A DNA stretch of 64,000 nt from a virus. The stretch covers positions 44,796-108,795 of IMG/VR virus record IMGVR_UViG_3300034196_000067, one strand, 5' to 3'. Positions 54,180 to 54,477 of this stretch are shown here, in pieces. Every line of letters begins with the position of its first letter. The stretch's first letter is position 1. The translations under genes were made by a program, and so were the position numbers. Below the pieces are notes generated by a model. It was not told the DNA's origin. It did no database searches and was given only the letters and a program-made list of their open reading frames with translations.

Positions 54180-54477
54180 AGGCATAAGCTGGCTACCGCT
54201 CTGGGTTTCTGTGCCCAGAGACGGTAGCCAGGCCCTTCTCCCTAACCTTAGCTCAAAGTCAAGAAGACGCGCCTGTTGTCACCTGCTCGTGGCGGTAGTA
54301 GAAGGATCGCACGCCCAGCTCCTGCAAGGCTGTGCGTACCGAAAGAAGGGGACGCCCCCGTGCTACTGCTCTATCCCGCTCAGGCGGGCTCGTTCCTCTT
54401 CGTCCTCAACCTCTTCTCGTAGTCCAACAACGGCCCAAGGCCCTTTGCCTTGGGCTTTTTCGTGTTCGGAGCCAACC
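54180..54477 (+). promoter_or_regulatory. Structured ~300-nt leader upstream of nrdJ, with a 17-bp hairpin at 54188-54230 and a terminator-like GC hairpin plus T-run (54436-54462) just before the start codon
   Basis: CTGGCTACCGCTCTGGG...CCCAGAGACGGTAGCCAG, then GCCCAAGGGCCCTTTGCCTTGGGCTTTTT. Confidence 0.4.

Follow-up and report, generated by a model that had tools for sequence, protein, structure and literature searches.

In the pyrBI (pyrL) and rph-pyrE systems of Escherichia coli a short or upstream open reading frame (ORF) is translated to the region of a single terminator, which is located before the structural gene. The advancing ribosome suppresses the pyrL terminator (PMC5021804), and pyrE expression is influenced by where the rph stop codon lies with respect to the pyrE attenuator (PMC2784333). 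An antiterminator hairpin is not required, and the closeness of ribosome and RNA polymerase decides whether transcription reads through (PMC5021804; PMC2784333). A leader with a comparable layout was here analyzed before nrdJ, the gene for class II ribonucleotide reductase, in a stretch of 64,000 nt of viral DNA (positions 44,796 to 108,795 of IMG/VR record IMGVR_UViG_3300034196_000067), which is referred to as the window and whose numbering is used throughout. A promoter-like element, a stem-loop, a mini-ORF (uORF) and a terminator form a cassette in front of nrdJ, and these parts are present and conserved in position among related loci. The cassette appears to be confined to a single clade of large uncultivated phages and to represent an already-known kind of control. 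Our tentative reading is attenuation of transcription through ribosome coupling, as in pyrBI and pyrE, and we give this reading a little less than an even chance; the putative function, the direction of the effect and the signal are all deduced from the nucleotide sequence.

Parts of the nrdJ leader and their conservation

Homologous loci were gathered via the upstream protein, NrdJ homologues and IMG/VR, and the 16 relatives obtained make 17 loci together with the window. The NrdJ proteins of the relatives are 54-73% identical to that of the window, and nearly all relatives are uncultivated phage contigs of approximately 140-210 kb. Their common gene order consists of an oppositely oriented gene of about 1100 amino acids (aa), a small ORF, a gap of approximately 300 nt and nrdJ, the start codon ATG of which is found at the identical place in the homologues. 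In the window, 301 nt separate the stop codon TGA of the upstream ORF (54174-54176) from the nrdJ ATG at 54478. An initial annotation of this DNA had described an untranslated leader of about 300 nt; the gap has this length, but the likely leader RNA covers only approximately 167 nt (54311-54477) and includes the uORF of 63 nt. The parts of the cassette are given below with folding free energies (dG) and z scores relative to shuffled sequences.

54276-54281 (+), -35-like hexamer TTGTCA; TTGnCA in 14 of 17 loci
54282-54298 (+), promoter spacer of 17 nt; length kept, sequence free, unstructured
54299-54304 (+), -10-like hexamer TAGAAG; family pattern TAnAA[G/C] in the alignment, atypical without a final T
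54311-54337 (+), stem-loop P3 at the predicted transcription start; hairpin in every relative, stem covarying
54348-54353 (+), Shine-Dalgarno-like element GGGGAC, 6 nt upstream of GTG; GGGAC in 16 of 17 loci (GGGGC in L022)
54360-54422 (+), uORF with GTG start, 20 codons, peptide MLLLYPAQAGSFLFVLNLFS and TAG stop at 54420-54422; present in 16 of 17 loci
54375-54388 (+), hairpin P5, CCCGC-UCAG-GCGGG, in uORF codons 6-10; dG -9.2, z -3.2
54389-54431 (+), G-poor, C-rich linker formed by the 3' half of the uORF and the 9 nt past its stop; little predicted structure
54432-54460 (+), intrinsic terminator with hairpin 54432-54456 and U-run 54456-54460; stem starting 9 nt past the uORF stop
54468-54471 (+), nrdJ Shine-Dalgarno element GGAG, 6 nt upstream of ATG; invariant across the 17-sequence alignment
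54478-56541 (+), nrdJ, class II ribonucleotide reductase of 687 aa, the gene under putative control; Pfam domains RNR_Alpha, RNR-II_ins_dom and Ribonuc_red_lgC

The GC hairpin with TTTTT that the initial annotation had placed about 15 nt before the start codon was confirmed, with 17 nt (54461-54477) between the T-run and the ATG. Its stem of 10 pairs, 7 of which are G-C, and its 5-nt loop agree with the properties of intrinsic terminators, and the hairpin folds with dG -19.1 (z = -3.4, 0 of 200 shuffles as good). The number of terminator-like sites in the region 53000-55500 (5 versus 2.0 +/- 1.6 expected) is not significant alone; this hairpin and hairpin H1 at the end of the upstream gene, which is described further below, are both above chance because each recurs in place and with a different sequence in 16 of 16 relatives. 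At the terminator position the mean z is -2.9, with values below -1.64 in 15 of the 17 loci, and each of the 16 loci that bear a uORF has a hairpin with dG between -12 and -28 beginning 0-14 nt past the uORF stop. L032, the only locus without a recognizable uORF, also has the weakest terminator. Moreover, the terminator stem covaries among the loci, and the covariation score of the hairpin pairs amounts to 0.334 compared to 0.185 in shuffles in a model-fitted alignment (reached by 0 of 500) and is lower when the partners are slid. A U-rich tail follows the hairpin in most loci, and the distance between the U-run and the nrdJ ATG ranges from 17 to 25 nt. Since no promoter fits between terminator and ATG, nrdJ must be transcribed through this predicted terminator.

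The start of the uORF is aligned among the loci, being GTG in 13 and ATG in 3, and GGGAC precedes this RTG codon by 2-8 nt in 16 of 17 loci; L032 alone has no recognizable start. The length of the uORF varies between 13 and 20 codons in steps of whole codons, with TAG, TAA or TGA as stop. Irrespective of length, the stop ends 52-65 nt upstream of the nrdJ ATG in 16 of 17 loci, the chance of a first in-frame stop in that interval being 0.05-0.13 per sequence according to dinucleotide shuffles, and in 8 loci it is the sole stop triplet in any frame before nrdJ. An ORF in the uORF frame and with the identical stop was independently called by a gene caller in L022. Taken together, start, frame and stop suggest that the uORF is translated. 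The peptides differ by clade and are hydrophobic in one and polar in another; a run of sensed-amino-acid codons was not found in the uORF, nor was an enriched residue common to the clades.

Within the uORF, P5 takes the forms CCGUGCC/GGCACGG, GACCCC/GGGGUC, GCCGAC/GUCGGC and CCCAC/GUGGG in relatives. The hairpin is kept even where the peptide changes, which argues for selection on the RNA at this place, and P5 may serve as a pause or timing hairpin. The linker that follows contains 12% G and 37% C in 16 loci versus 29% and 29% in the whole window and thus resembles the mostly unstructured, pyrimidine-rich or G-poor stretch upstream of the pyrBI and pyrE terminators. Two further pairings of the Shine-Dalgarno-like element were considered. 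With CCCC at 54355-54358, GGGGAC can form a mini-hairpin in the window (dG -7.2), which is shared only by closer relatives. Pairing with a CU-rich tract reaches -13 kcal/mol in the window and is strong only there and in L013, L014 and L111; it was rejected with a mean z of -0.09 versus shuffles and -0.35 versus genomic segments.

The two hexamers upstream of P3 are separated by 17 nt in 14 of 17 loci and by 18 nt in the remaining 3. T1, A2, A4 and A5 of the -10-like hexamer are found in all 17 loci, and the exceptions to the -35 pattern are TTGTCT in L014 and TTTGCA in L033 and L034. Compared to the sigma70 consensus, TTGTCA matches at 5 and TAGAAG at 4 of 6 positions, and the pattern of two hexamers with a variable spacer is seen in 17 of 17 loci. 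The spacers have a mean folding z of -0.65 and include sequences unable to pair, such as GGGGTAGGGGTGGGGCG in L033, so that an RNA helix between the hexamers ('P2') was rejected. A scan with the sigma70 consensus rejects TAGAAG because it demands T at position 6. Housekeeping promoters of alphaproteobacteria are described with -10 hexamers ending in C. Two hexamers with a fixed spacer of variable sequence are the signature of a sigma70-type promoter, although the usual final T of the -10 hexamer is missing here; transcription from this putative promoter would start near A54311, as predicted from a distance of 7-8 nt to the -10 hexamer.

Ribosome-coupled attenuation as a proposed model for nrdJ control

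Due to the conserved geometry of start, frame, stop and a terminator within 0-14 nt, ribosome-coupled attenuation is proposed for the nrdJ leader. H1 would close the upstream transcription unit, and the sigma70-like promoter would start the leader of approximately 167 nt. A ribosome translating the uORF close behind RNA polymerase would be located at the stop codon as the terminator emerges and would occupy or melt the lowest part of the terminator stem on its 5' side, leaving the hairpin incomplete beside the U-run. With the hairpin blocked, the polymerase would continue into nrdJ. If the uORF is untranslated or the ribosome lags behind, the hairpin would form and transcription would stop, leaving a leader RNA of approximately 150 nt. 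P5 would possibly cause pausing and thereby synchronize ribosome and polymerase.

The proposed attenuator differs from the E. coli systems in several respects. The pyrBI leader ORF runs through the terminator, whereas the nrdJ uORF stops 0-14 nt before the stem. The nrdJ leader has no evident UTP-sensitive U-rich pause cluster like that of pyrBI; its tract is C-rich and G-poor, with a U content varying by clade. In addition, the regulated gene is a phage nrdJ, an extra conserved stem-loop is present at the 5' end, and the cassette is known from sequence alone. With the trp, his and phe attenuators the leader shares the order of promoter, leader peptide ORF, early hairpin in the ORF (compare the 1:2 pause hairpin) and terminator. 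Unlike these attenuators, it has no conserved 2:3 antiterminator and no regulatory codon run, and the composition of its peptide depends on the clade. A trp-like antiterminator would require upstream leader sequence to pair with the 5' arm of the terminator, and the best such duplexes do not surpass those of shuffles (mean z +0.1 in 16 loci). In the predicted fold of the window the nrdJ Shine-Dalgarno element pairs with sequence past the uORF stop; this helix was rejected, as it is not conserved (mean z about 0).

Several observations weigh against ribosome-coupled attenuation. The 9 nt from stop to stem in the window are a borderline distance for a ribosome whose A site holds the stop codon, and in the window and its closer relatives the stem starts 7-14 nt past the stop, so that the ribosome would touch the lowest base pairs only. 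A clear U-run after the hairpin is missing in clade C (L033 and L034) and in L029. Conservation of the uORF peptide is poor and substitutions show no obvious enrichment at third codon positions, and for this reason translation has to be judged by start, stop and frame. GGGAC is more invariant than a Shine-Dalgarno function requires, and the model supplies neither a physiological signal nor a reason for the conservation of the P3 loop. Concerning the promoter, TAGAAG is without the normally essential final T of a -10 hexamer. Further copies of this promoter type were not found in the 64-kb window, and promoter function is consequently judged by resemblance and conservation.

The free drift of the uORF peptide and the missing sensor element, regulatory codon run and conserved alternative fold would also agree with a leader that is no switch at all. 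The terminator would then be a leaky constitutive one, acting as insulator and 3' stabilizer, P3 would stabilize the 5' end, nrdJ would be expressed at a fixed low level and the only role of the uORF would be to load ribosomes or to shield the leader. Both 5'-terminal stem-loops and terminator hairpins are generally known as stabilizers, which speaks for this explanation. It leaves aside that the distance from stop to terminator is 0-14 nt in every one of the 16 uORF-bearing loci and that the whole architecture persists down to 54% NrdJ identity. This spacing and deep persistence indicate parts that are functionally linked and not independent of each other, and we consider a leader without a switch rather unlikely.

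Hairpin P3 and alternative explanations of the leader

The stem-loop P3 begins 5-9 nt past the -10 hexamer in the loci. In the window it is composed of the stems 54311-54314/54334-54337 and 54316-54320/54328-54332 and the loop CCUGCAA (54321-54327). While CUGCAA is found in the loop of 17 of 17 loci, the stem sequences differ, examples from relatives being CAGC/GCUG, CGG/CCG, CACAC/GUGUG, CAAGCAC/GUGCUUG and CCCCUAC/GUGGGGG. The mean folding z is -1.7, and covariation is above that of the controls. Because the length of the loop varies by +/- 1 nt, pair counts understate the pairing of P3; realignment of P3 based on a covariance model was no better than the MAFFT alignment. A second copy of P3 was not found in the window. 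Pseudoknots between GTTG and loop CAAG, or between the loop pyrimidines and GGGG, were rejected since they are not kept in L026, L033 and L034.

Since the P3 loop and the invariant GGGAC are unexplained by coupling, protein-dependent antitermination of the nut or put kind is kept open as the main rival, although we regard it as unlikely. P3 would here be a nut/boxB- or put-like site that is bound by a protein of phage or host or acts on the polymerase, so that the modified polymerase reads through and expression of nrdJ begins at a defined stage of infection, the uORF being secondary. The order of promoter, conserved hairpin, terminator and gene fits such a system, as do the single occurrence of P3 in the window and the combination of a covarying stem with a loop constant in 17 of 17 loci, which is typical of hairpins recognized by a protein or the polymerase. 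Moreover, no alternative RNA pairing accounts for read-through. The start, frame and stop of the uORF and its fixed distance to the terminator are left unexplained, a search for a boxA-like element or a cognate protein identified neither, no other copy occurs in the 64 kb, and one terminator with one gene would be an unusual target of a processive system. Lambda N/nut (boxB) and HK022 put share with the nrdJ leader a promoter-proximal hairpin with conserved loop and variable stem and a terminator to be overcome. They differ from it by boxA and the cognate protein and, for put, by two hairpins instead of one, and a single downstream terminator and gene are found at nrdJ; the resemblance is architectural only.

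P3 with its CUGCAA loop, GGGAC and the mini-ORF could also form a new sensor, or a hairpin read by a phage antiterminator, that couples nrdJ to a metabolite or an infection clock. This is a speculative explanation which we judge as improbable as a leader without a switch; TnaC and SpeFL would be models for its version with a nascent-peptide or ribosome-based sensor. If it is true, the nucleotide pool or adenosylcobalamin (AdoCbl) would be candidate metabolites, and the leader of these uncultivated phages of approximately 200 kb would represent a kind of antitermination in phage nucleotide metabolism that has not been described before.

A cobalamin riboswitch had been suggested by the initial annotation, as class II ribonucleotide reductase depends on vitamin B12. 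The premise is weak because B12 riboswitches usually repress the B12-independent isozymes (nrdAB, metE) and not nrdJ. A cmscan of the whole window at gathering thresholds returned only a tRNA at 61852-61927, and in a permissive scan of 54000-54650 at E <= 10 there was no match to Cobalamin (RF00174), AdoCbl-variant (RF01482) or the nrdJ motif (RF03034). The top match of the latter scan was the small RNA (sRNA) family Hrs13 with 24.7 bits versus a gathering score of 52, and it was mostly aligned to the terminator. The 16 homologous loci had zero matches to Rfam at gathering scores, Hrs13 included. The checks that had been proposed along with the suggestion thus gave no Rfam family, while the homologous leaders do contain covarying hairpins, which are simple ones. 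Rfam holds an nrdJ RNA (RF03034) that was reported upstream of Streptomyces nrdJ (PMC8079986). The nrdJ leader shares with it the position of a conserved element before a class II ribonucleotide reductase gene, and apart from the missing matches both the organisms and the NrdJ subtype differ. Seven bacterial nrdJ loci had no match to Rfam; the Streptomyces loci among them carry a different nrdJ type and did not match RF03034 either, so that the negative result for RF03034 stands without a positive control.

More generally, a riboswitch that responds to AdoCbl or to a novel ligand, for instance a nucleotide, would consist of an aptamer at 54311-54431 and the terminator as expression platform. 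In favor of it, the terminator lies directly before the gene for a B12-dependent enzyme, conserved sequence blocks are present and the leader folds better than shuffles (z -2.16). These blocks are accounted for by promoter, Shine-Dalgarno element, start codon and stop codon, and much of the putative aptamer is an ORF whose frame is kept. Only simple hairpins are conserved, with no multi-helix junction and no pseudoknot, and an alternative between terminator and antiterminator is not conserved. With cobalamin riboswitches the leader has in common the 5' position, the terminator at its end and the relation to B12 metabolism, but no covariance model match, B12 box or multi-helix aptamer. We therefore hold a riboswitch to be highly improbable. 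The other option of the initial annotation, namely a different RNA element or a plain attenuator, fared better, as a strong and conserved terminator is located directly upstream of the nrdJ ribosome-binding site.

The unit of approximately 150 nt from promoter to terminator might finally be a stand-alone small gene for an sRNA or a micro-protein, with incidental read-through into nrdJ. It is complete in having its own promoter-like element and terminator, and it has the weak, sub-threshold resemblance to Hrs13. This match is mostly terminator and is absent in the relatives. Moreover, the unit always adjoins nrdJ, with 17-25 nt between U-run and ATG and no second promoter, and the encoded peptides of 13-20 aa are of differing character between clades. 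The covariance model of the leader was searched against the window and 171 nrdJ loci and matches only the 17 loci; no second copy was found in the window and none in the other 155 nrdJ loci. A small gene of its own is thus a quite doubtful explanation, less probable than a leader without a switch and more probable than a riboswitch.

Upstream region, distribution of the cassette and genomic context

Three further features are located upstream of the promoter-like element.

54183-54188 (+), CATAAG directly upstream of H1; family pattern [A/C/T]-[A/T]-[T/C/G]-[A/G]AG in the 17 loci
54189-54231 (+), H1, hairpin of 17 bp with one bulged A and an 8-nt loop, 13 nt past the stop of the upstream ORF; supported by folding and conservation
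54247-54252 (+), CTTAGC in an A-rich stretch, 24 nt upstream of the -35 hexamer; TTAGC kept in most aligned relatives

The upstream ORF (53700-54176) encodes 158 aa and has no match in Pfam or PHROG. H1 corresponds to the 17-bp inverted repeat of the initial annotation, which is present with one bulge in the arms 54189-54205 and 54214-54231, the outermost 10 bp being perfect, and folds with dG -36.5 kcal/mol (z = -7.05, 0 of 200 shuffles as good). A hairpin of 12-19 bp with unrelated sequence is located at this position in 16 of 16 relatives. Three relatives have a second hairpin after it, the tail of which is a clear T-run in L031 and more weakly T-rich in L028 and L110; H1 of the window is without a U-tract. 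The repeat had been assigned to the nrdJ leader. Because H1 is located upstream of the predicted promoter, it is assigned here to the end of the upstream gene, where it probably serves the preceding transcription unit as 3'-end or terminator hairpin. CATAAG has the counterparts ATAAG, ACAAG or AGAAG elsewhere and resembles the -10-like TAnAAG of the nrdJ promoter, with no -35 partner. CTTAGC possibly represents an UP element or the site of an activator.

Other coding possibilities around the gap were considered and rejected. A longer N terminus of NrdJ would be possible in the window, where the frame remains open as far upstream as 54067, but not in L001, where it is closed. A minus-strand ORF starting from CCATGG of nrdJ is present in only 5 loci, with conservation confined to the complement of the ribosome-binding region. 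For a bypass over the 55-nt gap as in T4 gene 60, the last uORF codon of the window, UCG, has an in-frame repeat upstream of the ATG, while L001 (CAG) has no landing codon.

The window belongs to a metagenome contig of 209 kb, and about 120 NrdJ homologues share at least 53% identity with its NrdJ. Concerning the distribution of the cassette, the closest NrdJ of cultured phages is that of mycobacteriophages with 46% identity, and nrdJ loci at <=52% NrdJ identity have neither such a gap nor the motif. L178, the nearest nrdJ locus from a bacterial metagenome-assembled genome (52% identity, labelled Bacteriovoracaceae), is without the leader cassette; just upstream of its nrdJ, positions 930-990 contain a poly-G/poly-C run and masked N's, probably an assembly artefact. 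Searches of viral contigs with the DNA patterns GGGGACGCCCCCGTGC and GGTAGTAGAAGG...CTGCAAGG returned a known relative and chance matches only, a three-block DNA pattern had 5 matches in metagenome contigs, all of them chance, and the pattern GGGGACNCCCCCGTGC...CTATCCCGC had zero matches in genome contigs. Several close NrdJ homologues, namely P0015, P0016, P0027, P0086, P0095 and P0110, have a length of 980-1060 aa. Some of these long homologues carry the intein/LAGLIDADG Pfam domains PF14528 and PF14890, which indicates that inteins interrupt nrdJ in some members of the clade.

Downstream of nrdJ on the plus strand, the window encodes a denV-like pyrimidine-dimer DNA glycosylase (56616-57068; Pfam Pyr_excise, E 6e-20), a polynucleotide-kinase-like protein (57511-58095; PHROG 415), a protein of 404 aa (60605-61816) and the tRNA (61852-61927). 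Several relatives have a gene with a hemerythrin domain after nrdJ instead. The protein of 404 aa matches adenylosuccinate synthetase in Pfam (PF00709, E 3e-49) and '2-aminooxy adenylosuccinate synthetase' in PHROG (PHROG 1211, E 4e-70) and is PurA- or PurZ-like; if its product is of the PurZ type, this would hint at a genome with 2-aminoadenine (Z-base). On the minus strand, the region 21152-53633 contains very large ORFs of 1059, 1408, 801, 1550, 760, 1066, 513 and 1147 aa, and those of 513, 1066 and 1147 aa have no match in Pfam or PHROG. The gene of 1147 aa adjoins the nrdJ cassette in all relatives.

For the discovery of RNA motifs in intergenic regions, the nrdJ leader calls for caution, as conserved blocks that look like a riboswitch can be a promoter together with translation signals. 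The cassette supplies a putative host-type promoter and a short leader for heterologous tests. Little is known about the control of genes of nucleotide metabolism in large uncultivated phages, and the cassette is a clean, conserved and testable example. If read-through into nrdJ does depend on translation of the uORF, coupling in the style of pyrBI and pyrE would be extended to phages and to the synthesis of deoxynucleoside triphosphates.

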